Source: Clostridia bacterium
Lineage (GTDB): Bacteria; Bacillota; Clostridia; UMGS1883; UMGS1540
Length of the DNA: 64,000 nt
Direction of reading: 5' to 3'
NCBI GenBank assembly: GCA_045531205.1
Contig: JAZSDN010000050.1
Coordinates: forward strand, 6,407 to 70,406
The position numbers and the translations under genes are program-made. Of this stretch, positions 5,596 through 52,217 are shown in pieces. How positions within the stretch are numbered: the stretch's first letter is position 1; every line of letters starts with the position of its first letter. Below the pieces are notes generated by a model. The model saw nothing but the letters and a program-made list of their open reading frames with translations, was not told the DNA's origin and ran no database searches.

Positions 5596-6981
5596 ATGAA
5601 ATTATGGAGCGGAAGATTTGAAAAAAACACCGACAAAGCGGTTGATGATTTTAACTCTTCAATAAAATTTGACAGCCGTATGTACCGCGAAGATATACAC
5701 GGCAGTATGGCTCACGCAAAAATGCTTGGCAAACAAAATATAATTTCGCAGAGCGAAGCTGACCTTATAGTTAAAACTCTTGGCGAAATTCTTGAAGATA
5801 TCGAATGCGGTAAGCTTGAAATTTCGGCTACCGCAGAAGATATTCATATGTTTATCGAAACTGTACTTACCGAAAGAATCGGTGATGCTGGAAAACGCCT
5901 TCATACAGGAAGAAGCCGTAACGACCAGGTTGCTCTTGATATAAGAATGTATCTTATGAATCAGGAAACCGAAATAGCTGCACTTATAAAAGAATTAGTG
6001 CAAACTCTGCTTTCAAAGGCACGTGAGAATACCAAAACTTTTATGCCCGGTTATACTCATATGCAAAAGGCGCAGCCTATAACTTTAGCACACCATTTTC
6101 TTGCTTATTCGCAAATGTTTGTGCGAGATATATCACGCCTTGAAGATGCGAAAAAACGTACAAATGTTATGCCTTTGGGGTCAGGTGCTTTAGCCGGCAC
6201 AACTTATCCTCTTGACCGAGAATTTGTTGCAAATGAGCTTGGTTTTTCAGAGATTACATTAAATTCTATAGACGGAGTAAGCGACAGAGATTTTGTAATA
6301 GAGCTTGCCTCTGCCCTCTCTCTTGTAATGATGCATCTTTCACGTTTTTGCGAAGAGCTTATTTTGTGGAACACAAACGAGTTTTCTTTTGTTGAAATGG
6401 ACGATGCATATTCAACAGGAAGCAGTATAATGCCACAAAAGAAAAATCCTGATGTTGCAGAGCTGATAAGAGGAAAAAGCGGTAGAGTTTTCGGTGATCT
6501 TATAGGTCTTTTAAGTATGATGAAGGGTCTTCCTTTAGCATATAACAAAGATATGCAGGAAGATAAAGAAGCTATTTTTGATTCTATTGACACAGTAAAG
6601 CTTTGCTTGCCTGTATTTACTAAAATGATAGACACAATGAAGGTAAATCAAGAAAATATGCGAAAAGGTGCAGCGGGAGGATTTACAAATGCAACTGATG
6701 CTGCAGATTATCTTGTTAAAAAAGGTGTTCCCTTCCGCCAGGCTCACGAAATAGTAGGAAAACTTGTTTTATATTCAATAAAAAATAATAAATCACTTGA
6801 AGAACTTTCTTTAACAGAATATCAAGAGATTTACGAAGGTTTTTCCGACGATATATACGATGCAATAAGCATAGAAACTTGTGTTGAAAAACGTACTATT
6901 CCCGGTTCTCCGGCAGAAAAAACGGTACTGCTTGCAATAAACAGTACCGAAGAAAAACTAAATAGTTTCAATATTATTTAA
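5596..6981 (+). CDS. argH: Argininosuccinate lyase
   Basis: 461 aa. MKLWSGRF..., the fumarate-lyase signature [12 protein letters not shown]. Follows argG after a 3-nt gap. Confidence 0.97.
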
Positions 6982-40262: not shown

Positions 40263-41147
40263 TTAATAATTCATATATTTTTTCAACATATTCTTTTCAA
40301 AATTCAACAGATATTTTGCTTCTTCGTCAATTCTTTTTTCCGAAATGGAATCAATTAAATTGCGGTATACATGTATATCCCTGCCTACTTCTCCTCCTTC
40401 CATAACAAACGGTTCTGAGACTATTCTACCTCTATAGTTTATATCGGCAAGAGCTTTAAATATCTCGTCCCAATCAAGATGTCCTCTTCCAGGTGCTGTA
40501 CGATTATTTTCACCTGTATGAAAACTTGTAAGTTTATCTCCCACAAGTCTTATTGCATCACCTATATTATTTTCTTCAATATTCATATGATATGTGTCAA
40601 GAAGCACACCAATATTTGGGCTATCTATTTCTTCTGTATACATAAGAGCTTCTGCTGCAGTGTTAATAAGACAAGTTTCAAAACGGTTAACAGCTTCAAC
40701 ACAGTATGTAACTCCATTATCTTCGGCAGTTTTGATAATTTCTTTCATACTTTTAATGCTTTGTTCCCAATATGGACGTTTATCCCCCTGATAATTATCT
40801 GGAGTCCCCCATCCTGCATAGCTTACACCAGACAGTAATGTGCCATTCATAAACCCTATTCTTTCAACTATTCTTTTTAAATAATCAACTCCGCCAAGTC
40901 TTATTTTTTCATTCAGAGAGGATACATCATAATTTCTGTCAAGGCCAAGGCTGTATGTTAGTTCAATATTATATTCTTCGGCTAACTTAACTAAATCTTT
41001 CATGTGTTCTTTACTCATTTCAAGCAAAGGTTGTGCCTGAAATTCAAGAACATCAAACCCTATCTCGGATGCCTTTTTTATATATTTTTTATGGTCAGCA
41101 TCCCAGTTTTTCTCCCAAAAATTCATAAAAATACCAAACTTATTCAT
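40263..41147 (-). CDS. Ketose 3-epimerase (D-psicose/D-tagatose 3-epimerase family, xylose-isomerase-like TIM barrel)
   Basis: 294 aa. N-terminus MNKFGIFMNFWEKNWDADHKKYIKKASEIGFDVLEF parallels the DTE/DPE family N-terminus (…GIYYxYWExxWxxDxxxYIxKxxxLGFDxLE…). ...VEAVNRFE..., ...LLDTYHMNIEE... and ...VSEPF... metal-ligand regions are present. Confidence 0.8.
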   Translation of the reverse strand: MNKFGIFMNFWEKNWDADHKKYIKKASEIGFDVLEFQAQPLLEMSKEHMKDLVKLAEEYNIELTYSLGLDRNYDVSSLNEKIRLGGVDYLKRIVERIGFMNGTLLSGVSYAGWGTPDNYQGDKRPYWEQSIKSMKEIIKTAEDNGVTYCVEAVNRFETCLINTAAEALMYTEEIDSPNIGVLLDTYHMNIEENNIGDAIRLVGDKLTSFHTGENNRTAPGRGHLDWDEIFKALADINYRGRIVSEPFVMEGGEVGRDIHVYRNLIDSISEKRIDEEAKYLLNFEKNMLKKYMNY

Positions 41148-41163
41148 TTTATCTTACTCCTTA

Positions 41164-42564
41164 TTATAAAACATCTATATCGTATCCAAGATATTTCACA
41201 AGCGCTTCCTTCACACATTCTGACCATTCTCCTTTTGCAATGGCAACATGGTGTTTGTATCCGTTTTCGCACATATACTTAAATACATTTTTAAGATTAT
41301 CTTTTTCAAAAACAATACCTGTTCCAAAAAACTCTTTGTCAAACTTATCTTCTGTCAATGTGCCATTAGTTGTAAATCCATAAAGTTTTCCATTTTCGGT
41401 TTTAATGCTTGCAACTGTAACCTTTCCTGATTTTATTTTTCCGTTAAGAATTCCAACTCCGGTTCCTTCTCCGTAAGATTTTTTAAACATAAGATGTTCA
41501 TTTATAAAAGTATCATTTTCAAAGAATGAATTTGGAACTGCCGAGCAATGAAACATAATGACTTTATTTTCTTCATTTCCGTAATTATTGTTTACATCCA
41601 AAAGCATAACAGGATGATTTGAGGCTAAAGTTAACGCATACATCATAACAGCATTGTTAACATCAAGTTCACATGCGGCAGGTATTCCTTTTTCATTCAT
41701 ATCACTCAAAATAAGACAAGGTGCTATATTATACTGTGTAACAAATTCGTCCCAGCATCTTACTGCCATAGCATCAAGAGAATAGTCCTTAACCAATTTA
41801 TCTACTGCTACACCAAGCTTTGCAATATTTGTAAGCTTTTCTTCAGAATAACTTCCAAAAGATGTAACAGAAGAATAATATCTTTTTTTCTCATCTAATT
41901 CGGTTTTGTCAACTCTTTCCATTAAATCAAATATATACGATAAATCTATTGATTCAACATTTATATTTTTGTTTTGCAATGCCACTTCATCTGTACGTAC
42001 AGTTTTAAAAGCAGTTGTTCTAGCTCCTAACGTTCCAATGTTAACATTTCTCATTCCTTTAACAATTCTGCATATTGCAGCAAAGTTTTTTAAGTCTTTT
42101 GCAAAAGCTTCATCAAGAGGTGAAACTGCCATTTTTTCTGTTAAAGTGAATTTAATATTGCATTGACGCAAAAGATTACACATAGCAAATTTTCCGCACA
42201 CAGCATCTCTTCTTTGTGAAAAATCCATCTTCCCTATTTCGTCAGGATATGCTTGAACTAAAATTGGTACACTTACATTTTTAAATGCTTCTGCCGCACC
42301 ATTTTCATCCGAAAAGTTCGGCATACATAAAATTATACCGTCAAACCTTCCCTTGTTATTTTCTAAAAAATCTTTGAACAAACGTCCTTCTTCTCTTGTT
42401 TCTACCGCACCGTATCTTGTTAAATTTTTATCCATACAAATATAACTAAAACCATTATCGACTACAGCTTTTATCATTTCTTCTCTGGCTTTCGCTATAA
42501 CTTCTCCTGGAAAAAAACCTCTGTTTCCAAAAAATAATGCGAATGTAATTTCTATTTTCCTCAA
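41164..42564 (-). CDS. L-fucose/L-arabinose isomerase family protein (COG2407-type, substrate unknown)
   Basis: 466 aa. Family-typical features (...GARTTAFKTVR..., ...ACELDVNNAVMM..., ...MFHCSAVP...). Forms an operon with the epimerase. Confidence 0.72.
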   Translation of the reverse strand: MRKIEITFALFFGNRGFFPGEVIAKAREEMIKAVVDNGFSYICMDKNLTRYGAVETREEGRLFKDFLENNKGRFDGIILCMPNFSDENGAAEAFKNVSVPILVQAYPDEIGKMDFSQRRDAVCGKFAMCNLLRQCNIKFTLTEKMAVSPLDEAFAKDLKNFAAICRIVKGMRNVNIGTLGARTTAFKTVRTDEVALQNKNINVESIDLSYIFDLMERVDKTELDEKKRYYSSVTSFGSYSEEKLTNIAKLGVAVDKLVKDYSLDAMAVRCWDEFVTQYNIAPCLILSDMNEKGIPAACELDVNNAVMMYALTLASNHPVMLLDVNNNYGNEENKVIMFHCSAVPNSFFENDTFINEHLMFKKSYGEGTGVGILNGKIKSGKVTVASIKTENGKLYGFTTNGTLTEDKFDKEFFGTGIVFEKDNLKNVFKYMCENGYKHHVAIAKGEWSECVKEALVKYLGYDIDVL

Positions 42565-42602
42565 ATTTCTCCCTCCTTTTTATATATCTTACATTGCCTT
42601 TT

Positions 42603-42618
42603 TCACTATTTATAGTGA
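42603..42618. promoter_or_regulatory. Perfect 16-bp palindrome in the divergent promoter region
   Basis: TCACTATTTATAGTGA (7-bp arms, 2-bp centre), between the isomerase operon start (42564) and the PocR-AraC gene start (42717). Confidence 0.3.
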
Positions 42619-42716
42619 CTTTCTTGTTAAAAATAAGCACTATCTTACTTTTTTATTTTGCTAATATTGATTTTATTTGTTTTATTGTGTTAATATAAAA
42701 ACAAGGAGTGATATAT

Positions 42717-43565
42717 ATGATCTATAGTTTTGATAAAATAAAACTGCATAATATGTTTAAAGATTTTTACACTCTTTTAAAAATAACAATAAGTATTTGG
42801 GACTCGGATTTTAATCAGTTACTTTTTTATCCAAATCCCATGCCTTCAATATGTGCAAAAATAAAATCGTCGCCAACAGGCAAACAAAAATGTCTGGAAT
42901 CTGATATAAACGCCTGCAAAAAAGCTGCTTTAATAAAAAAACCTTATACCTTTACATGTCATGCAGGTCTTGTTGATACTGCTTTTCCGATTTATTATAA
43001 CGACGAAATAATTGCCTACATTATGTTTGGACAACTGCGCGATGTAGAAAATAAATTATCTACCATAGAAAATGTAAAAATTTTATGTAAGAAATATGGT
43101 TTAGATGAAAAAAGTATAGATAAATATTATAATGATTTACCGTTGCTTAATCATAATCAAATAAATGCCATTATACATCTATTTGAAATGTGTATTCCTT
43201 ATTTTTACACAAGTGAAGCGATAAAATTTGAAGAAAATATGCTTGCTTCAGAAATAGATAACTATATATCGCAAAACCTTTCTTCCTCTTTATCTCTTGA
43301 ACAATTAACTAAAAAATTTATGATTTCGACAAACGAATTATATCAGATATCACACAAATTTTTTGGCACTTCAATAAAAGACTATATAATTCAAAAAAGA
43401 ATTATCAAAGCGAAACACTATCTTGCAACAACTAATTTACCTGTTTCTGAAATAAGTATTAAAATTGGATATAATGATTACAACTATTTTATCCGCACCT
43501 TTAAAAATCGAACAGGGTACACTCCGCTTTCATACAGAAAAAATTTTCCGCTTAACACTTTGTAA
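42717..43565 (+). CDS. AraC family transcriptional regulator with an N-terminal PocR sensory domain
   Basis: The track ORF starts at the GTG at 42708. The ATG at 42717 has AAGGAG 8 nt upstream. PocR-like Cys pattern (...PSICAKIKSSPTGKQKCLESDINACKKA...TFTCHAGL...) and a C-terminal HTH_AraC (...IGYNDYNYFIRTFKNRTGYTPLSYRK). Confidence 0.85.
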   Translation: MIYSFDKIKLHNMFKDFYTLLKITISIWDSDFNQLLFYPNPMPSICAKIKSSPTGKQKCLESDINACKKAALIKKPYTFTCHAGLVDTAFPIYYNDEIIAYIMFGQLRDVENKLSTIENVKILCKKYGLDEKSIDKYYNDLPLLNHNQINAIIHLFEMCIPYFYTSEAIKFEENMLASEIDNYISQNLSSSLSLEQLTKKFMISTNELYQISHKFFGTSIKDYIIQKRIIKAKHYLATTNLPVSEISIKIGYNDYNYFIRTFKNRTGYTPLSYRKNFPLNTL

Positions 43566-43572
43566 AACATAT

Positions 43573-43605
43573 AAAAACTCACCTATATTTTGTAGGTGAG
43601 TTTTT
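43573..43605. terminator. Bidirectional terminator between convergent regulator and activase genes
   Basis: AAAAACTCACCTA-TATTTTG-TAGGTGAGTTTTT. Confidence 0.7.
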
Positions 43606-43664
43606 AATCTTTATACATAATAACATTTTATCTTACTTTTCTATATATGTAATAAGACAACAGG

Positions 43665-44573
43665 TTAAACAAAATAGCAGCTTATATTGCATTTTTCATT
43701 AAGTATTGAACAGATTTTTTTCATTTCGCCATCTGTTTGTGAGCTGTCTGCGAATTTCGTGTATTCTTTTCCTGCAATCTTATATTTTGACTCAGCAAGA
43801 TTGTTGTATTTTAATAATTCAATCTCTTTTATTCCTTTTCCGAAGGTTTTTATGATTTCAGCAAAGGCATAAATATCATCATCAGAATCATTCACTCCGG
43901 GTATTACAGGAATTCGTAAAATGATATTACTGTGTTTGTTTGATAATTTAGTGATATTTTCGATTATCAGTCTGTTGTCCTGCCCTGTAAATTTGCGATG
44001 TTTTTCGGAATTTGGAATTTTCAAATCAGCAAAGAACAAGTCTACAAAGGGTAACACCTCTTCAACCTTTTCCCAAGGAACGAAAAAAGCACTTTCAATT
44101 GCTGTGTGAATCCCATGTTCTTTACACATTCTTGTAACTTCTGCCACAAAGTCTGAATACAACAAACACTCTCCGCCCGAAAAGGTTACTCCTCCGCCTG
44201 AGGAAATATAATAGTGAGCGTCTTTTTTAATTTCTTCAAAAAGTTCCGGAGCAGTCTTTTCCTCACCACACAGGCTAAGTGCAAGCGAAGGACAGCTTAC
44301 CGCGCATTTGCCGCAAGCTGCGCAACCTTCGCGCAGAAAAGCCATATCATTTCCCAGTATTTTATGATGTTGTGGACAAAGCTCAATACATTTACCGCAA
44401 TGAATACATTTTGTAGGTATGTAAAGAATTTGCTTTTTTGAAGACAATGTTTCCGGATTATGACACCATTTGCATCTAAGGGCGCATCCTTTGAAATATA
44501 CAACTGTTCTGACGCCCGGTCCATCATGCAAAGAACCTCTTGATATATTTGTAATTGTTGCACTTACAGACAT
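43665..44573 (-). CDS. Glycyl-radical enzyme activating protein (radical SAM) with a two-ferredoxin-motif insert
   Basis: 302 aa. Radical SAM CALRCKWCHNPE, plus CIHCGKCIELCP and CAACGKCAVSCP. The start overlaps the stop of the upstream GRE by 10 nt. Confidence 0.92.
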   Translation of the reverse strand: MSVSATITNISRGSLHDGPGVRTVVYFKGCALRCKWCHNPETLSSKKQILYIPTKCIHCGKCIELCPQHHKILGNDMAFLREGCAACGKCAVSCPSLALSLCGEEKTAPELFEEIKKDAHYYISSGGGVTFSGGECLLYSDFVAEVTRMCKEHGIHTAIESAFFVPWEKVEEVLPFVDLFFADLKIPNSEKHRKFTGQDNRLIIENITKLSNKHSNIILRIPVIPGVNDSDDDIYAFAEIIKTFGKGIKEIELLKYNNLAESKYKIAGKEYTKFADSSQTDGEMKKICSILNEKCNISCYFV

Positions 44574-47200
44574 GAATGCTTTGTCCTTCCGATAATATGA
44601 TTCTGAAGTTCAGGAGAAAGCAGGTTAAATTTTTGACTGAATCCAGAAACTCTTACTGCAAGGTTATTATATTTTTCCGGATATTTTTGTGCATCAATAA
44701 GAGTGTCTGCATCAATGGTATTAAACTGTACATTTTCCAGACCTTTTTCGCTGCTTGCAATTAAAATATCCGCAAGCATGGGTATATTTTTGTCAGTAAA
44801 CAATTTTGGATCAACTTCAACAATTGCCGAAGTTGTACCCGGAGTGCGTTTGGTTGGCAGTTTAGCAATTGAGTTAAGCAAAGCTGTTAAGCCGTTAAAA
44901 TCACGTCCCTGCATTGGAGAAACACTATAAGCTATAATTTCGCCTTTGCGTCTTCCGTCAGGAGTTGCGGCACTTTCTCGTCCGTAGTCAACCATCCAAA
45001 GGAATGTAAATGGTTGTGCATGGAATGAAAGTCCGTATTTTTCAGACAATTCTTCAAGATAATCGCAAGCAGTATTTACTATATCAACCGCAATTGAGTC
45101 TACACTTTCAATATCATTACCAAATTTTGCAGCTTTATTTATAAATTCAAGCCTTATACTTTCATCCGGAAAATTGTTAACTAATATATCTTTTAATTCT
45201 TCAAGTGTATATTTTTGTTGTATGTACACAAATTCACGAATAACCTCAAGTGAGTCGGCAAGGTTTGGTATTCCGCCAAGCATAATTTGGTAATAATCAT
45301 ACTTCGCTCCTGCATCATTAAAGTCTTTTCCTGTTTCAATACAACCGTCTGTCAGTAACGACTTGTAAGGTCTTGGGCTGTTGATAACAGAACAATCCCT
45401 GTGTTTTTTTACAGAAGAACAGGTCAAATCAAGAATATGATAAATTTGTTTTTTGACCGAATCATAAAACTTGTTATAGGTGTCAAACGAATTAAGCTCA
45501 CCGGTTTTTACACCTGTGTTAAAATCAGGATACATCATACTGCTGCCGTTACATAGCACATACTCAACTGCTTTAAGCAAATTGGTTTCTCCTGTTACGG
45601 CATGAGGATTGGATTTTCCCGGTATAACAGTTTCAACACATCCAATTTGAGTGTAGTCGCAGGCATCCTCATAAGATATTCCTTTGCTTGTAAGTGCAGG
45701 AATCATTACATCATCATTAAAGAAGAACGGAACACCTTTCTGGACATGACCTACCACCTCAAGGGCACGTTTTATAAATTCCTTTTCCGTATTTTTTGAG
45801 TAACGCACTGACATGCAACGTATAAAATCAAGCTGTTCGGTAGCATCGAGCATCATATAAGAAAGTTCATTGACCTGACTGCTTCCATCGGGAGAAGTCC
45901 CGCCGACACACGACTGCTGAACATCGTAATTTAAGTATAGTTTAATCCACAAGCAGCATATCAGTTCAAAAGCATCTTCTTTTGTCAAAATGCCTTTTTC
46001 AATATCCGCTTTGTAATATGGATAAAGTATCTGATCAAGTCTGCCGAGTGAATTTGCGTTTATATGGTCCTCCCATGTGTTGATGATATGCGCAAACCAT
46101 AAAGACTGTACTGCTTCTCTGAAGTTTGAAGCAGGATTTTCGGGAACATTTTCACACGCACTTATAATATAATCCAAATCCTTTTCAAGATAAAGTTCGT
46201 CACCAGATTCTTTAATTCTTTGAGCTTCTTTTGCATATTTTTTGCCCATTTCACAAGCTGCTACGCAAATACTTTTCATTGAAGAATAAAGCGGATTTGT
46301 TCCGTTTTTCTTTTCGTGCGCTATAACTTCGTCAAGCAGGCCTTTAAACCCAAGCTTCAATACTTTTTCATAGTTTATTACACTGTGATTAGAGTCGGTA
46401 CATCTTCCTATTGCAGCCCATTCTCCGCACGAATCCTGCTCGTCTTTTGTAAGAATCGGCGATACATATTCAAGAAAATTAGGCTCTTGTTTAGTCAGCT
46501 CAAAGTATTTTTCCAAATCGCTATCACTGATACCATTTAATTTGGCTAACCTGCGATTTTCTTCCGTGTCATCAGGTGAAAACCATTCATCGTATTTAGA
46601 GTCAGGAAAATTAAAACCAACAATTAGTTCTCCAGGAATAATTACAGGAGTAAATTTATCTAAAACATTAATAGCTCTTGCCGCGCTGATTTCTGTATTC
46701 GAAAGATTCTTTTTTGCTGCTTCAGCCATCCCAATATAAGAGTAAACTTTATTTTGCATACAATAATAATCTTCATAGTCGTTTGTGCCAACAACTAAGC
46801 GACGCAAAGCTTCACATCTGTCAGTCAGAGAATACATAGTAATTCTTTTCCTTTCATAATAAAATTGAGTTTCTTTTGCTTGCTTTTTATATTCTCTGGG
46901 CAAGCAACCGAATTCTGCCAAAAAGGCTTTGTTGAACCCGCCTAACGTTTCATATCCATAAGCTATTGCTACATCGGTTATTTTTTTGCCAGAGATTATA
47001 TCAATTGCAGCCAATTGGAGACGGTAATGTCGAACATATTTTACAAAAGACTTTCCGGTATATTTATGAAATTTCGAGCAAAAATGCCATTTAGAATACC
47101 CAAACTGATTTGCAACATCTGATAGGTCTAAACGCTTCTCGATATTATTATGAATATACTTTAAAACTTCATACACAACACCATCTCCTTTCATTTTCAT
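44564..47200 (-). CDS. Fusion protein: N-terminal AraC-type HTH DNA-binding domain plus a full glycyl radical enzyme (C-x-E thiyl-loop class)
   Basis: One uninterrupted 878-codon ORF. Residues about 10-110 are HTH_AraC (…LSDVANQFGYSKWHFCSKFHKYTGKSFVKYVRHYRL…ITDVAIAYGYETLGGFNKAFLAEFGCLPREYKK). From M122 there is a GRE core with IGCVETVIPGK and C-terminal RVSGFSQKFNLLSPELQNHIIGRTKH. The exact start is uncertain (ATG at 47200, or GTG at 47176 after AAAGGAG). Confidence 0.88.
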   Translation of the reverse strand: MKMKGDGVVYEVLKYIHNNIEKRLDLSDVANQFGYSKWHFCSKFHKYTGKSFVKYVRHYRLQLAAIDIISGKKITDVAIAYGYETLGGFNKAFLAEFGCLPREYKKQAKETQFYYERKRITMYSLTDRCEALRRLVVGTNDYEDYYCMQNKVYSYIGMAEAAKKNLSNTEISAARAINVLDKFTPVIIPGELIVGFNFPDSKYDEWFSPDDTEENRRLAKLNGISDSDLEKYFELTKQEPNFLEYVSPILTKDEQDSCGEWAAIGRCTDSNHSVINYEKVLKLGFKGLLDEVIAHEKKNGTNPLYSSMKSICVAACEMGKKYAKEAQRIKESGDELYLEKDLDYIISACENVPENPASNFREAVQSLWFAHIINTWEDHINANSLGRLDQILYPYYKADIEKGILTKEDAFELICCLWIKLYLNYDVQQSCVGGTSPDGSSQVNELSYMMLDATEQLDFIRCMSVRYSKNTEKEFIKRALEVVGHVQKGVPFFFNDDVMIPALTSKGISYEDACDYTQIGCVETVIPGKSNPHAVTGETNLLKAVEYVLCNGSSMMYPDFNTGVKTGELNSFDTYNKFYDSVKKQIYHILDLTCSSVKKHRDCSVINSPRPYKSLLTDGCIETGKDFNDAGAKYDYYQIMLGGIPNLADSLEVIREFVYIQQKYTLEELKDILVNNFPDESIRLEFINKAAKFGNDIESVDSIAVDIVNTACDYLEELSEKYGLSFHAQPFTFLWMVDYGRESAATPDGRRKGEIIAYSVSPMQGRDFNGLTALLNSIAKLPTKRTPGTTSAIVEVDPKLFTDKNIPMLADILIASSEKGLENVQFNTIDADTLIDAQKYPEKYNNLAVRVSGFSQKFNLLSPELQNHIIGRTKHSCL

Positions 47201-47254
47201 TATAGCAAAACCTAAATAATATTTCTACTCCAAAATTGTGTTTTTCAAAATGTT

Positions 47255-47286
47255 AAAAATGCTCGCCTGAAACAACAGACGAGCAT
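47255..47286 (-). terminator. Terminator hairpin belonging to the spoIVB 3' remnant
   Basis: The minus strand reads ATGCTCGTCTG-TTGTTT-CAGGCGAGCAT followed by TTTTTAA. This is an 11-bp stem with one G-U pair, in the same position relative to the remnant stop codon as the terminator of the intact spoIVB. Confidence 0.55.
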
Positions 47287-47291
47287 TCATC

Positions 47292-47417
47292 TTAATTTTT
47301 CTCTGATTCTGCTAACATATTTTCAATAAATATTCCATACCCACGCGTGGGATCGTTTACGAATACGTGAGTGACTGCACCGATGAGCTTGCTATTTTGG
47401 ACAATGGGGCTGCCCGA
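47292..47417 (-). pseudogene. Remnant of a spoIVB 3' end (last 41 codons plus stop), orphaned
   Basis: Minus-strand translation is [41 protein letters not shown], against intact SpoIVB ...[42 protein letters not shown] at 51115-51243. Homology stops abruptly upstream of the SGSP codons, and there is no start codon or N-terminal part. Confidence 0.8.
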
Positions 47418-47448
47418 TAGGTGTGATGTCAATATGGGACAACAAATT

Positions 47449-48282
47449 CTACGCTTTTTTAACTAATATATTTGTTTTTGCTCTGATATAATTAATTATT
47501 TCATTAATCTGTTCATCAGTTTGCATTGAAATTTCAAGCGGTTGTTTTCCTAATGCCAAGTACTTATTTTCGCCAAAAGCGTGATAAGGCTCTATTTCAA
47601 TCCCTATGATTGATGTAAGTGTATTTGCAAGTTCGCATATTTTGTCATAGTTTTCTTTTCTGTCATTATAGCCGGGAATTACAGGACAACGGAGAATAAT
47701 ATCTTTTTTTAACTCATTTAATAAATATAAGTTTTTCTTTATTAAAATATTGTCCACTCCTGTATAGGTCTTATGTAATTCAGGATTACTTTCCTTGAAA
47801 TCAAACAAAAACAAATCGGTGTATTCTGCAATTTGTTTTATTTTATCGCTATCGGCAAAGCCACAGGTTTCTATAGCAGTGTGCAGGTCATTTTCTTTAG
47901 CTTTTTTTAAAATGTCCAATGCAAACTCAAACTGAAACAACGGCTCACCACCCGAAAGTGTAATTCCGCCACCGGAATTTTTATAAAATTCATAGTCTTT
48001 CATAACTTCGTCAATAACATAATCTGACAATACTGTTTTTCCGCAGATTTCCTTCGCATTATTAAAACATATAAAATCCGAATTGTCAGCTGTTAAGTTT
48101 CGACATCTTCCACAGCCCGAACATTTATCCGGATAAAACATGATTTGTTTTTCTTGCGTCTGACTTTCAGGATTATGACACCATTCACAACGCAAAGGAC
48201 AGCCTTTGAAAAAAACAGTTGTGCGTATTCCCGGACCATCATTAACACAAAATTTTTGAATGTTAAATATTTCACCGGTCAT
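47449..48282 (-). CDS. Glycyl-radical enzyme activating protein (radical SAM), reduced auxiliary-cluster insert
   Basis: 277 aa. [12 protein letters not shown] radical SAM motif and only one CxxCxxC (CSGCGRC) in the insert region. Starts 2 nt after the GRE stop. Confidence 0.9.
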
Positions 48283-48284
48283 TT

Positions 48285-50234
48285 TTATTTCTCCTGCACT
48301 GCTCGTTCAATTACAGCGTCCTGAATTTTTTCATTCAATGTTGTAAACTGTGTACTGTAACCACTGATTTTAACAATAATATCCGTGTGTTCTGACGGAT
48401 TTTGTTTGGCTTCTTCTAACAATTTTGCATCTATAGTATTAACAGCAAGATGAAAACCGCCGGCTTCAAAAAATGTCTTTATTAGAGGTGTAAGTACACT
48501 GCTTTTTTCAATATCTTTTTTATTCAAACTTATCATAACAGGGCATCCGTTGGGAAAATATTTGGCAGAGATATTTGCGCATGACATCAGAGTTGATGTT
48601 AAGGTGCTTTTGTGAGGCGTTGCGCAAGGCATCACTCCGTAGGATAACAGTTCTCCTTTTTTTCTTCCGTTAACCATTCCGCTACAATCCCGCTGCCATA
48701 TATCCGCAGTAAAACGAAACAGTGCCGGCGAAGAAAGAACATTATCATCTATAGGATATTTTTGAATTACTTTTCCTATAAACTCGGTTATATCTTTAGC
48801 TAACTGATTACTTTCTTCGCTGTTGGAACCGTAATAAGTTTTTAAGCCTGCTATTTTATTATATAAAGATACATCCTCAAAATCTTTTTCTGCCTGCATC
48901 CTTAGATTTTTAATTGTTGTATGATTTTCGTCAAATACAAGCCTTTTTATAGTGTAAATACTGTCAATTAAAATGCCGATTCCCAAGATATTTATGCCAA
49001 ACAGGTATTTTTCCCGGTTTAATACACAGTTTGCAAATGGTGATACTGCGTTTCTATCTTGATTTGCAATACTCTTAAATTCAGGAAGTAAAGAGTTTGC
49101 ATAATAAAATTCAAAATAATTTTTGTATGCATTAAGAAAGTCTTTGAAAGAAGAATAATCAGACTTTTGCTCCAAAAACTCTTTGAAGGAATCATATAGG
49201 TTAACGGCTGCGGCAACTGTGTTTGAAAACGAGCCTTGGGGAGCTGGTTCGTAACAGCCAACAATTCCGTAATCCATTGCTCTCTTATCATCAATTCCCA
49301 ATTTTTTTAAACCTTCAATAATAGTATCATCATTGAAATATGCCGGCATACCGCTTCCGTTTAAAACCAGCCGAGTTGCTTTATTTAAAACATCGGTACT
49401 TGTTATTTTTGATACTCTCAGGGCAATGGATGGCTGGCGCATACTGATTTGTGTTTGAGCTTCAATAAATAACGATGTCAATTCATTTTCAATATCTCCA
49501 CCCACGGTCAGCATGCACGACTCATCACCCTCGGAATTTTTTATGTAAAAGCACATAATAAGTTCTAACGCTTCTTCCGGCGTAAGAATACCTTTTTCGA
49601 TATCATTTTTATAATATGGATACAGGTATGAATCTGCTCTGCCTAAAGATATTGCAGCGCCGCCCGCTTCTGTATATAAAAAGCATTGAATAAACCATAC
49701 AAGCTGTAACGCCTGACGAAAACTCACAGGAGGGTTTTCCGATATGAATTCACAGTCATTTGCGATGTTTAAAAGTCTTTCTTTATCTTCATTCTGCGAT
49801 AAAACATAAGCTTTTCTTGCAGTGTCAGCATAATTTTTTATGTAATTTGAAAAAGCCTTTAACGTATTTACCAAAGCTGTTTTATTAGAGTTTTTATTGA
49901 CTTCATTTATTTTCCCTTTAATTCCTTTTTCCAAGAAATCCTGAAAATCTGCAATGAAGTGCCCTCTATTCTGAGGTTTTACAGTTTCGCCAAGAGACCT
50001 TTGCCATTGCCAATGCCAGTTTGTTCCTACAATGTATTCCTTTTCATAAATTTCGGTTGAAAAGTTTTCTGAAAAATACTGATAGAAACCACTGTATAAA
50101 AGCCCTTTATCTTCTTCAACGTTTTTGTTTGAAATATATTGCTGATAAAGATTACATAAATGCTTTTTGTGTTGCTCTCTTTTTTCTTCAAACATAGCAA
50201 GGTGCTGTTTTTTTAAAAAAATTGTGTTATTCAT
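48285..50234 (-). CDS. Short glycyl radical enzyme homologue (about 649 aa)
   Basis: The track ORF starts at the GTG at 50255. The ATG at 50234 (MNNTIFL...) follows GGAAAGGAG. Thiyl loop VGCYEPAPQG and C-terminal glycine loop IVKISGYSTQFTTLNEKIQDAVIERA. Shares DIEKGILTxEEAxELI and FNDD motifs with the upstream GRE. Confidence 0.85.
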   Translation of the reverse strand: MNNTIFLKKQHLAMFEEKREQHKKHLCNLYQQYISNKNVEEDKGLLYSGFYQYFSENFSTEIYEKEYIVGTNWHWQWQRSLGETVKPQNRGHFIADFQDFLEKGIKGKINEVNKNSNKTALVNTLKAFSNYIKNYADTARKAYVLSQNEDKERLLNIANDCEFISENPPVSFRQALQLVWFIQCFLYTEAGGAAISLGRADSYLYPYYKNDIEKGILTPEEALELIMCFYIKNSEGDESCMLTVGGDIENELTSLFIEAQTQISMRQPSIALRVSKITSTDVLNKATRLVLNGSGMPAYFNDDTIIEGLKKLGIDDKRAMDYGIVGCYEPAPQGSFSNTVAAAVNLYDSFKEFLEQKSDYSSFKDFLNAYKNYFEFYYANSLLPEFKSIANQDRNAVSPFANCVLNREKYLFGINILGIGILIDSIYTIKRLVFDENHTTIKNLRMQAEKDFEDVSLYNKIAGLKTYYGSNSEESNQLAKDITEFIGKVIQKYPIDDNVLSSPALFRFTADIWQRDCSGMVNGRKKGELLSYGVMPCATPHKSTLTSTLMSCANISAKYFPNGCPVMISLNKKDIEKSSVLTPLIKTFFEAGGFHLAVNTIDAKLLEEAKQNPSEHTDIIVKISGYSTQFTTLNEKIQDAVIERAVQEK

Positions 50235-51018
50235 AAATAACAAACTCCTTTCCACAATACCCTAAATTTGCCGAGATTTCAGCGGAAGCATTTCTTATTA
50301 GATCAAGTTTTTCATTAATTAAAGAGTCAATATCGTCATATAGCGTCAGGCTTGAAACACCTATAGTTGCCACCACATTTCCTGTATAGTCAAAAATAGG
50401 TACTGCAATACAAATTATGCCTTTGGCAAACTCTTCATTATCAATAGCAAAACCTGCTTTTTTTATCTTATAAGCTTCAATAATAAAACTATCAAAATCC
50501 GTAATGGTATTTTCTGTTCTTTTGTCAACCGGTATATTAAAGTAATTCTTTATCTCATCTGTATCTGAATAACTTAAAAGAATCTTACCGGGGGCAGAAC
50601 AGTTAAGTGGGTATTCTCCACCTATACACCCATTAATTCTGACTTCCTTTGTGGAATCATAATGCAAAAGATAAAGGACGTTTCTTTCGTTTTTAACCCC
50701 AAGATAGACAGAATCACCAAGCTCATTATTTAACTGTTCTATGTAAGGAGTTGCAATTTTTGCAATGCTGTTATTATTAACATAACCTGATATAAGTGAA
50801 AAGGGACGGAGCGTTAATCTGTATTTTTTTTGAGTATTATCACTCATATAAATCCAATTTTTCTCGAGCAAAGCTTCCAACACCCTTGAAACAGCATTTT
50901 TATTTATATTAAGAGCATTACTTATATCAGCAATTCCTATTTCAGAATTTTTACTTGCAAAAAATTCAATTATTTCCAAAGCGTAATCTACAGCAGGAGC
51001 TTTAGACAACTTTATCAC
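50227..51018 (-). CDS. IclR family transcriptional regulator
   Basis: 263 aa. N-terminal wHTH (...ALEIIEFFASKNSEIGIADISNALNINKNAVSRVLEALLEKNWI...) and a C-terminal IclR effector domain. The likely true start is the TTG at 51009, 6 nt after GAGGTG. The stop overlaps the GRE start by 8 nt. Confidence 0.9.
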   Translation of the reverse strand: MIKLSKAPAVDYALEIIEFFASKNSEIGIADISNALNINKNAVSRVLEALLEKNWIYMSDNTQKKYRLTLRPFSLISGYVNNNSIAKIATPYIEQLNNELGDSVYLGVKNERNVLYLLHYDSTKEVRINGCIGGEYPLNCSAPGKILLSYSDTDEIKNYFNIPVDKRTENTITDFDSFIIEAYKIKKAGFAIDNEEFAKGIICIAVPIFDYTGNVVATIGVSSLTLYDDIDSLINEKLDLIRNASAEISANLGYCGKEFVIYE

Positions 51019-51046
51019 CTCATAATATATTTATTCTACAATTATA

Positions 51047-51075
51047 AGTATATCACGTAAAGATATATATGTCAA
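51047..51075 (-). promoter_or_regulatory. Sigma-A type promoter of the IclR-GRE-activase cassette
   Basis: The minus strand reads TTGACA (51075-51070), a 17-nt spacer ending in TGA, then TATACT (51052-51047). It directly abuts the spoIVB terminator. Confidence 0.6.
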
Positions 51076-51110
51076 CAAAAATGCTCACTTATATAAAACA
51101 AGTGAGCATT
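51076..51110 (-). terminator. Rho-independent terminator of spoIVB
   Basis: The minus strand reads ATGCTCACTT-GTTTTATAT-AAGTGAGCAT followed by TTTTTGTT. Confidence 0.7.
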
Positions 51111-51114
51111 TATC

Positions 51115-52086
51115 TTATTTGTTTTTCTCTGCTTCAGTTAACATATTCTCTATAAATATCCCATAACCTCTTGTTGGATCATTCACAAATACGTGTGTCA
51201 CAGCTCCGATGAGCTTTCCGTTCTGAACTAAAGGTGACCCCGACATACCTTGGACAATTCCACCCGTTATCGAAAGAAGTTTTGGGTCTGTAACTTTTAT
51301 TATCATATTTTTATTTTCTTCATAATTTTTATTTAAAATCTTTTCAATTAAAACTGTATATTTTTGTACACCTTCTCCTAAAACATCCGCATATATAAAA
51401 GCATTTCCTTCCTTCACTTCGTCTGATGTTGAAGTAAAAACAGTTTCTCCTTCACTTTTTTTAAGCAGTGTTCCGAATAATCCGCTTTTTGAATTTTTGT
51501 TTATTATGCCACTTTTAACATTTAAAAAATCCCCTTGCAAACCACCGGGGCTCCCCTCTTTCCCTCTTATTACATACATATTTTCACAAAAACGTATATC
51601 GCCCGAATTTCCTGAAGGCATTATGCCTGTTTCTGTATCTTCTACCTTGTGCCCTAACGCAGCAAATTTTAAGGTTTCGGGTTCGATATAAGTTATAGTT
51701 CCTATCCCGGCTATACTGTCTCTTACCCATGCGCCTATTTTATATTTATAAGCATCGTCATAAAATACAGGTGTAACCTTTTTGGTTAAAATTTTATTTT
51801 CTCTCTTTATTCCTAAATTAAGATTTTTTCCTTCTGACTGTTCAACAAGCTTGCTGAATTCATCACTCTTTGATATCTTTTTGCCGTTTACTAAATAAAT
51901 TATATCTCCCTTTTTAATTCCTGATGCCTTGGCAGGAGATATATTTTTTCCATTTGAAACTATATCAGAAAATCCAACCACCAATACACCTTCAAAATAC
52001 ATGGATATTCCTATGGTGTTTCCTCCTAATATTACTTGTTTTGGTTCGCTCTCTTCTGTTGCTTCAATATTGTTTTGGCCGCACAA
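51115..52086 (-). CDS. spoIVB: SpoIVB peptidase (S55), stage IV sporulation signalling protease
   Basis: PDZ-like region (...GIKKGDIIYLVNGKKI...) and the serine protease motif GMSGSPL. The coordinates are the track ORF (TTG start, no SD). The reading frame stays open upstream to 52173 and encodes a signal/TM segment, so the true start is probably near 52157/52158 (see findings). Confidence 0.88.
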   Translation of the reverse strand: MCGQNNIEATEESEPKQVILGGNTIGISMYFEGVLVVGFSDIVSNGKNISPAKASGIKKGDIIYLVNGKKISKSDEFSKLVEQSEGKNLNLGIKRENKILTKKVTPVFYDDAYKYKIGAWVRDSIAGIGTITYIEPETLKFAALGHKVEDTETGIMPSGNSGDIRFCENMYVIRGKEGSPGGLQGDFLNVKSGIINKNSKSGLFGTLLKKSEGETVFTSTSDEVKEGNAFIYADVLGEGVQKYTVLIEKILNKNYEENKNMIIKVTDPKLLSITGGIVQGMSGSPLVQNGKLIGAVTHVFVNDPTRGYGIFIENMLTEAEKNK

Positions 52087-52217
52087 AAGAGAAAGCAGGG
52101 TTACTGTCAGTAAAAGTGCAAAAAATATTTTTAATAAATTAACACTTTTTTTTGCAATATAAAACCACCCCCCTTAATTTAATTTTTACAGAGAGCGGTT
52201 TTTATATTCATTGCAAT

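Follow-up and report, generated by a model that had tools for sequence, protein, structure and literature searches.

Genes and features at the spoIVB locus

The window analysed here (64,000 nt in full, positions 6,407 to 70,406 of contig JAZSDN010000050.1 of the Clostridia bacterium assembly GCA_045531205.1; coordinates below are those of the window) contains the gene spoIVB, whose 3' end is present twice, and two glycyl radical enzyme (GRE) modules, each with its own activase gene (AE). One module lies between the two spoIVB ends and the other beyond the second end. We argue below that the codon before the SGSP motif of spoIVB is very probably the chromosomal attachment site (attB) of integrative elements that use large serine recombinases (LSRs), and that the window holds two stacked LSR-less cassettes with replacement spoIVB ends, called here B (51243 to 47418, nearest the gene) and A (47417 to about 43656). 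The features, in the direction of transcription, are as follows; the L-numbers are our labels for spoIVB loci in other genomes.

51244–52086, minus strand: 5' part of spoIVB, probably host-derived, encoding the PDZ domain and the S55 protease up to the codon before SGSP (Pfam and NCBIfam SpoIVB; G+C fraction at third codon positions, GC3, 0.23, like the background)
51115–51243, minus strand: putative replacement 3' end of spoIVB, in use (SGSPLVQ...TEAEKNK*), with an attL-type junction at 51243/51244 (match to the in-use end of L206)
51074–51111, minus strand: predicted intrinsic terminator of the in-use spoIVB end (fold -18.1 kcal/mol, z -5.4; stem about 51079–51111)
51047–51075, minus strand: sigma-70-like promoter candidate upstream of the IclR gene (TTGACA, 17-nt spacer, TG-TATACT; a consensus match only)
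50227–51018, minus strand: IclR-family regulator (Pfam IclR_C and HTH_IclR; kept beside the GRE2 homologue in L206–L208)
48285–50255, minus strand: GRE2, a short (~650 aa) GRE (Pfam PFL-like and Gly_radical)
47449–48282, minus strand: AE2, GRE activase (TIGR02494, 300 bits)
47418–47443, minus strand: putative element-side attachment (att) arm GTTGTCCCATATTGACATCACACCTA, which closes cassette B and with the remnant that follows forms an attR-type junction at 47417/47418 (motif match and profile search)
47292–47417, minus strand: orphan spoIVB 3' end, 41 codons and stop, apparently displaced by cassette B (codon statistics; colinear with the end before the HTH-GRE gene in L202, L203 and L204)
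47252–47288, minus strand: predicted terminator of the orphan end (fold -20.1 kcal/mol, z -6.5; stem about 47257–47288)
44564–47200, minus strand: GRE1, a fusion of an AraC-type helix-turn-helix (HTH) domain with a GRE (Pfam HTH_18, PFL-like and Gly_radical)
43665–44573, minus strand: AE1, activase (TIGR02494, 337 bits)
43656–43661, minus strand: GTTGTC, probable vestige of the distal att arm of cassette A (colinearity with L145 and L203 breaks after the first 6 nt of their motif)

The gene identifications made in a first-pass annotation of this sequence (SpoIVB, IclR, two GREs and two activases) are all correct by Pfam and NCBIfam. SpoIVB matches TIGR02860 with 343 bits, its S55 domain aligns through the end of the profile, and the open reading frame (ORF) is complete, with the replacement 3' end in frame. 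The IclR promoter candidate is the top site of a promoter scan (11 of 12 positions), and the same scan gave a promoter-like site at 47199–47227 ahead of GRE1.

The duplicated spoIVB 3' end

The last 41 codons of the intact spoIVB, beginning with SGSP (51243 to 51121), are repeated as a remnant at 47417 to 47295, both on the minus strand, and a repeat search reported the pair as family D1 with a spacing of 3826. Over these 41 codons the copies differ at 31 of 123 nt, with 6, 1 and 24 of the differences in codon positions 1, 2 and 3, respectively; the two share 37 of 41 residues, 21 codons show synonymous change only, and the intact copy has one additional Lys codon (EKNK* versus EKN* in the remnant). 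All four counts reproduce exactly those of the first-pass annotation. The proportion of synonymous differences (pS) is 0.83, which is saturated, and that of nonsynonymous differences (pN) is 0.086; in 100,000 random placements of the 31 substitutions, none kept 37 or more residues. These codon statistics, and the colinear relatives of the remnant in L202–L204 (below), support the earlier suggestion that it is not a local duplication and that it evolved as part of a working spoIVB elsewhere.

Local alignment of the two ends runs on past the stop codon and the hairpin as far as the T-tract, while 5' of SGSP the copies match at only 24 of 90 nt, which is the chance level; the sharp limits first drawn by hand, at the T-tract and just upstream of SGSP, are thus confirmed. 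Both terminators do still pair, as had been claimed, and fold strongly, though the stems first given for them were off by a couple of bases. Between the AE2 stop (47449) and the remnant (47417) there are 31 nt, not the roughly 28 nt first estimated; 5 nt and a conserved 26-nt motif (47418–47443) fill this gap.

A 26-nt arm at a fixed spoIVB junction

Among spoIVB loci taken from 80 species-representative (GTDB) genomes, 13 have one or two extra copies of the SpoIVB C-terminus 0.8–4.1 kb downstream of the intact gene. All of the extra copies are orphan fragments, and except for two that are further truncated they start, as in the window, at SpoIVB residue 281, the codon before SGSP. Over all the loci compared, arrays have one to three remnant junctions. 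Directly 5' of every complete orphan lies a 26-nt non-coding motif, which consists of GTTGTCC, four variable bases and a block resembling TTGACAAYCACTCGTG. The core of this motif has a single exact match within the window, at 47418–47443. An nhmmer profile built without the window finds the window motif with E = 5.7e-7 and the motif plus remnant with E = 3e-30, and the same search found no third junction in the window.

Metagenomes were scanned with a degenerate pattern made of the motif and only the four SGSP codons. At least 120 stretches match this pattern, and nearly all of the listed matches continue for about 35 SpoIVB codons that are absent from it; where the contig reaches that far, an intact spoIVB lies upstream. 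Some of these remnants are truncated or contain stop codons and are therefore relics, not genes. In more than 130 junctions the homology stops at one and the same codon, and the element-side (P-type) and spoIVB-side (B-type) arms converge at the "TG" before the Ser codon. On this sequence evidence, the spoIVB site is used in many gut Clostridia. In the literature library searched, no paper treats spoIVB as an integration target and none links spoIVB with serine recombinases, and the junction pattern, searched for free attP sites, has no match in 2.9 million viral contigs.

Large serine recombinases and other cargo

In 21 of the 106 junctions that have enough upstream sequence (~20 %), tandem ORFs of about 550, 570 and 529 aa, always on the spoIVB strand, end 12 nt before the motif. 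They usually form a triplet, and each has Resolvase, Recombinase and Zn_ribbon_recom domains (DUF4368 in some), which identifies them as LSRs. LSR genes also adjoin the motif in MT836038.1, a faecal virome contig that proved to be an integrated junction. The LSRs of different loci are only 46–49 % identical, and the linkage to the motif is therefore conserved rather than clonal. Because the motif abuts spoIVB at a fixed codon and LSR genes end 12 nt before it, we identify it from its context as the element-side arm of an LSR att site. The first-pass annotation had found no integrase or transposase here; for the integrase this is true of the whole 64-kb window, and the cognate class, tandem LSRs abutting the motif, can be identified at other loci. 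One LSR-bearing element also carries BrxL, an Mrr nuclease, UmuC/YolD and an ImmA/ImmR-type switch. Triplets occur at L142 (9371–14337) and in L081, L094, L152 and L201. Half-sites of three types can be told apart at the site, namely the 5' arm from spoIVB, the 26-nt arm of the element and the shared 3' arm from spoIVB, and the three LSRs of a triplet might divide the work between them.

Forty-seven complete small inserts measure 775–4093 nt (median ~1.3 kb), and most are single genes of about 1 kb. Their cargo is varied and includes regulators, glycosidases, BspA-LRR and cell-wall proteins, a MurQ-like operon, DUF4417/ParB_N genes and another AraC-GRE-activase set. Recombinase and phage genes are absent from the cargo of the cassettes inspected, and an LSR trace is present in only a few of the 47 complete cassettes; no tyrosine recombinase was found near any array. 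Five loci of one species (L090, L130, L172, L186 and L199) all have one cassette, with an internal indel, and offer no contrast between presence and absence. L089 and L110 were considered as a before-and-after pair for insertion of an LSR-bearing element; their arrays are related and do not form a clean pair.

Relatives of the two cassettes in distant hosts

Each GRE module of the window recurs elsewhere as a unit together with its own spoIVB end. Cassette B is about 80 % identical in nucleotide sequence to L206–L208, from 6 nt before the in-use junction through the motif and remnant, and the in-use end of L206 matches that of the window in 40 of 41 residues (83 % nt; the same SGSPLVQ...TEAEKN). 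Cassette A is colinear with L203 (85 % nt over 3760 nt), L202 (83 %) and L204 (79 %) over spans of about 3.6–3.8 kb that comprise the orphan end and its terminator, the promoter, HTH-GRE1 and AE1 up to the motif vestige. In L203, where spoIVB is intact, this similarity opens 9 nt past the in-use junction and closes at the motif, and in L145 an 80 % identical AE1 homologue is followed by the full motif and a remnant. The in-use end of the window matches L206 and the orphan end L202–L204, each with its module.

The SpoIVB 5' parts of the hosts that share cassettes with the window are only 39–40 % identical to it in protein, and have no nucleotide similarity to it. Likewise, L054 and L189 share an LRR cassette that is 84 % identical, while their SpoIVB 5' parts are only 34 % identical in protein. 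Cassettes that are so similar behind 5' parts that are so diverged must have moved between distant hosts.

Base composition supports the same direction of replacement in hosts of high GC. GC3 of the 5' part, in-use end and remnant is 0.80, 0.31 and 0.69 in L037, 0.92, 0.51 and 0.74 in L050, and 0.86, 0.60 and 0.86 in L071; in these hosts, as the replacement-end model predicts, the composition of the in-use 3' end is foreign and that of the distal remnant resembles the host. Cassette GC is usually below that of the host. The corresponding values in the window are 0.23, 0.37 and 0.49, a weak test since the window is AT-rich; the GC3 of the orphan end (0.49 versus 0.23 for the host 5' part) suggests that this end is not native. 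The first-pass annotation had pointed to GC and codon usage as a way to set the modules apart from their flanks, and here only the orphan end stands out, the cassette genes being indistinguishable from the background.

Proposed history of the window and its alternatives

The circular form of an insert would consist of the 26-nt P arm joined to a spoIVB 3' end of about 41 codons, followed by a terminator and the cargo. Integration would join the host spoIVB 5' part to the 3' end of the insert, leaving the gene intact and the junction again attB-like; at the far side, the previous 3' end, now displaced, would be joined to the P arm. Since the restored junction is attB-like, further inserts could enter serially, giving an array in which the newest insert lies beside the gene. 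The crossover would lie at the "TG" that precedes the Ser codon or immediately past this dinucleotide, and the LSRs probably came in trans from a larger element that belongs to the same family. Cassette B has the two hybrid junctions expected of such an insert, host 5' part with cassette end at 51243/51244 and P arm with displaced end at 47417/47418. We infer three steps for the window. Cassette A would have entered first, with its own end and terminator, promoter, AraC-HTH::GRE1 and AE1; cassette B would have followed, with its own end and terminator, promoter, IclR, GRE2 and AE2, orphaning the end of A; and a deletion would then have removed the distal arm of A except for GTTGTC, together with the original native spoIVB end.

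The first-pass annotation offered two models as alternatives. In one, a segment entered within spoIVB and brought a replacement 3' end and terminator; this is supported by the att arm at the distal end of cassette B and by the recurrence of that unit behind distant spoIVB genes in L206–L208. In the other, the island to the left of the remnant, taken to begin at 40.26 kb, came from a donor in which it lay directly behind spoIVB. The orphan end does belong to the HTH-GRE cassette, as the colinear loci L202–L204 and L145 indicate, but that cassette ends at about 43656 and not at 40.26 kb. Both events are upheld, as successive ones rather than as alternatives. The integration hotspot proposed there is likewise real as a reusable site, but it lies inside the gene, at the codon before SGSP, and not downstream of it, and it is not specific to GRE modules, its cargo being very diverse.

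Several points weigh against this reading of the locus as an LSR attachment site. No LSR gene or fragment is present in the 64-kb window or in the 13 GTDB arrays, and mobilization in trans is therefore assumed. No left end of an LSR-bearing element was seen in the loci examined, nor was restoration of spoIVB by such an element. A circular or attP form was found neither in the viral contigs nor in phage and plasmid collections, in which BLAST gave only integrated forms, namely MT836038.1 (from a GC-rich host) and one partial match. A dyad-symmetry analysis of the junction arms gave no clear crossover centre. The arm in the window ends in CTA (47418–47420, minus strand), whereas its last two bases are TG in 122 of 123 metagenome junctions (the search pattern allowed G or A in the last position); should the variant base be part of the crossover, cassette B could no longer be excised and would be locked in position. 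The cassette genes of the window, with GC3 of 0.24–0.30 against a background of 0.26 ± 0.03, do not separate host from cassette. Finally, in homologous cassettes (L054 with L189, and the window with L203 and L202) the spoIVB ends are only 70–77 % identical in nucleotide sequence while the cargo is 83–85 % identical, so end and cargo are not strictly co-inherited. Ends within one locus can be closer (85–93 %), which points either to gene conversion that acts between the end in use and the displaced one or to synonymous drift at a higher rate.

The attachment-site reading can be extended, tentatively and with rather less than even confidence, to an integron-like LSR gene-capture platform of gut Clostridia. 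The catalytic-serine codons of spoIVB would then serve as a self-regenerating attB, and the LSR triplets of resident elements would shuttle small recombinase-less cassettes in trans, hundreds of them, each equipped with a spoIVB end, a terminator and a promoter of its own. The three members of a triplet might each read one type of half-site (B arm, P arm and shared spoIVB arm).

The alternative that survives best, though we consider it unlikely, is that each cassette arrived as a full LSR-bearing element with recombinases of its own, lost them afterwards by deletion and is now dead, so that LSR-less forms never move alone. Recombinase-less, att-flanked relics of ICEs (integrative and conjugative elements) of streptococci are usually explained in this way, and a decay series is seen at the spoIVB site as well, where L121 has an N-terminally truncated LSR beside the motif and the L144 cassette contains a 63-aa LSR fragment. 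Against this, several hosts with SpoIVB 5' parts only 34–40 % identical have LSR-less cassettes in common (cassette A in L202, L203, L204 and L145, cassette B in L206–L208, and the cassette of L054 and L189), so these cassettes either spread after loss of the LSR or arose by identical deletions that recurred. The cargo of cassette B stops 5 nt from the motif with no LSR remains, and the rarity of LSR traces among the 47 complete cassettes also argues against their origin by deletion.

Far less probable is homologous or homology-facilitated recombination at the conserved spoIVB 3' end, by a Campbell-type single crossover of a circle without a dedicated recombinase. It would fit the very high protein conservation of the SpoIVB C-terminus across Clostridia and the lack of a recombinase in the window. 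It does not account for a boundary at one codon in all of the junctions counted above, for a conserved non-coding 26-nt arm that has no counterpart in spoIVB, or for the LSR genes that adjoin this arm. The two ends in the window are moreover 75 % identical overall with no shared stretch longer than 11 nt, and a RecA-type crossover needs longer identity than this. For the same reason the loss of cassette B by recombination between the repeats, which the first-pass annotation had envisaged, is unlikely, and recombinase-mediated loss is more plausible. Slightly less probable again is an origin as a prophage or tyrosine-integrase island whose integrase was lost. Phage 21 and e14 in icd are the textbook case of a replacement 3' end that differs mainly at synonymous sites, but the junction is absent from the viral contigs searched, the recombinases beside the site are serine and not tyrosine recombinases, and the cassettes have no phage genes. 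An ancient local tandem duplication of the unit of spoIVB end, regulator, GRE and activase, followed by divergence, can practically be dismissed in spite of a repeat spacing (3826) close to that of the activases (3775), since GRE1 and GRE2 are only 28 % and AE1 and AE2 only 36 % identical, which refutes duplication of the whole unit, versus 90 % in protein for the spoIVB ends, a non-functional copy would not hold its nonsynonymous rate (dN) far below its synonymous rate (dS), and each module has its own close relatives in other genomes.

The GRE modules, neighbouring genes and the spoIVB start

GRE1 is 878 aa long, with the AraC-type HTH at aa 30–107 fused to a complete GRE. The architecture is common to at least 120 homologues of 65–92 % identity, which databases name only "helix-turn-helix domain-containing" or "PFL family", and GRE1 looks like a conserved regulator-enzyme fusion. 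GRE2 belongs to a small family with only 97 relatives at E <= 1e-60 and a weak YjjI-like match; almost all relatives are unnamed or "hypothetical", and a few are labelled generically as formate C-acetyltransferase or pyruvate formate-lyase. An IclR regulator stands beside the GRE2 relative in all three loci inspected. The GRE of L056, considered as a counterpart of GRE2, is only 25 % identical and represents different cargo.

L202 (GCA_045591015.1, 2714–13950) has two stacked GRE cassettes behind spoIVB, of which the HTH-GRE cassette is lengthened by a GDSL lipase and an RpiB gene before the motif. L206 (GCA_017410375.1, 6095–17944) has at least three GRE-activase modules in a row behind spoIVB, and in it a second short GRE is inserted into the activase gene. 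GREs are therefore a recurrent, though not exclusive, cargo of the site.

Beyond cassette A, the window has a convergent PocR/AraC regulator, a fucose-isomerase-like gene and a D-psicose 3-epimerase-type gene (NF051856, 383 bits) at 40263–43565; no counterpart of this block was found among the fetched loci. Between the convergent AE1 and PocR genes lies a perfect 14–16 bp hairpin with A- and T-tract flanks (43572–43606), which looks like a bidirectional terminator and sits just past the deletion breakpoint in the cassette A motif.

The spoIVB ORF as listed begins at a TTG at 52086. The 26 in-frame codons upstream of it encode the expected hydrophobic N-terminal segment AKKSVNLLKIFFALLLTVTLLSLLCG (52086–52175, minus strand) and include no ATG, GTG or TTG. 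A strong ribosome-binding site, AAGGGGGG, precedes an in-frame ATT and an out-of-frame TTG, and a run of eight A residues follows the latter. The true start is probably about 70 nt further upstream than listed; either ATT serves as a rare start, or the length of the homopolymer is in error or has slipped. The closest relative, L001 (SpoIVB 85 % and neighbouring genes 87–96 % identical), has a contig that breaks inside spoIVB. Neighbours of about 280–315 aa upstream of spoIVB were considered as Xer-type recombinases; by eye, from their sequence motifs, those inspected look mostly like PdaA-type deacetylases.

Significance and comparison with known systems

What first appeared to be a one-off recombination scar becomes a defined and widespread attachment site with a recognizable 26-nt signature, by which annotators can mark out the limits of cassettes that uncultured Clostridia of gut and rumen have acquired horizontally. 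Uncharacterized GRE modules, among them an AraC::GRE fusion family and a family of short GREs, move between very distant hosts as complete units from promoter to terminator, which bears on the spread of anaerobic metabolic traits in the gut. For those who use serine integrases in genome engineering, the naturally occurring LSR attB/attP pairs at this site, with their triplet recombinases and a layout that restores the target gene, may also be of interest.

Among known systems, integrons resemble the spoIVB arrays in their short rows of cassettes, which mostly consist of one gene, lack a recombinase and are each bounded by a recombination site; new cassettes enter at the proximal end, as proposed here for spoIVB. 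The spoIVB cassettes differ in that each has its own promoter and terminator, and the site lies within a coding gene and consists of a 26-nt arm and coding sequence rather than a folded attC. With no IntI and no attC sites, the spoIVB array is not an integron.

The skin and SPβ elements split the genes in which they reside, and their excision in the mother cell reconstitutes the gene. They are intervening elements of the sporulation genes sigK and spsM, respectively, and use the large serine recombinases SpoIVCA and SprA (PMC6957869). Large serine recombinases at sporulation genes of Firmicutes are the shared trait, but spoIVB is never functionally interrupted, so that no developmental excision is required and the spoIVB inserts are not skin-type intervening elements.

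Streptococcus ICEs with three tandem serine recombinases at one extremity disrupt mutT, traG or hsdM by site-specific insertion (Ambroset et al. 2016, PMC4701971). Three tandem LSR genes at an element end and a protein-coding target are found in both systems, but spoIVB is restored by an element-borne end, and small recombinase-less cassettes share its site.

The logic of the replacement end is rather like that of phage 21 and e14 in the Escherichia coli icd gene, where an alternative, mostly synonymous 3' end is supplied and the displaced end is kept as a pseudogene at the other junction. The cassettes of the window would similarly bring an alternative spoIVB 3' end and leave the old one as a pseudogene. 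The icd case differs in having a tyrosine integrase and a prophage, a single insertion and no recombinase-less cassettes.

The closest known system appears to be the staphylococcal cassette chromosome (SCC) and pseudo-SCC (ψSCC) arrays at rlmH. These composite islands of staphylococci lie at the 3' end of rlmH (orfX) and are integrated by the large serine recombinases CcrA/B or CcrC. By this analogy, both systems would have a serine-recombinase att site in the 3' part of a conserved chromosomal gene that is intact afterwards, and in both serial insertion would give tandem arrays bounded by repeated att sites, in which many members are recombinase-less and the cargo is varied. They differ in that the spoIVB target is at the catalytic-serine codons about 41 codons from the stop, rather than in the last few codons of rlmH, and in that the spoIVB cassettes carry a long replacement end (~125 nt) with a terminator. 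In addition, the spoIVB-site recombinases come in triplets with Resolvase, Recombinase, Zn_ribbon and in some cases DUF4368 domains, the hosts are anaerobic gut Clostridia, and most of the cassettes are single genes of about 1 kb.

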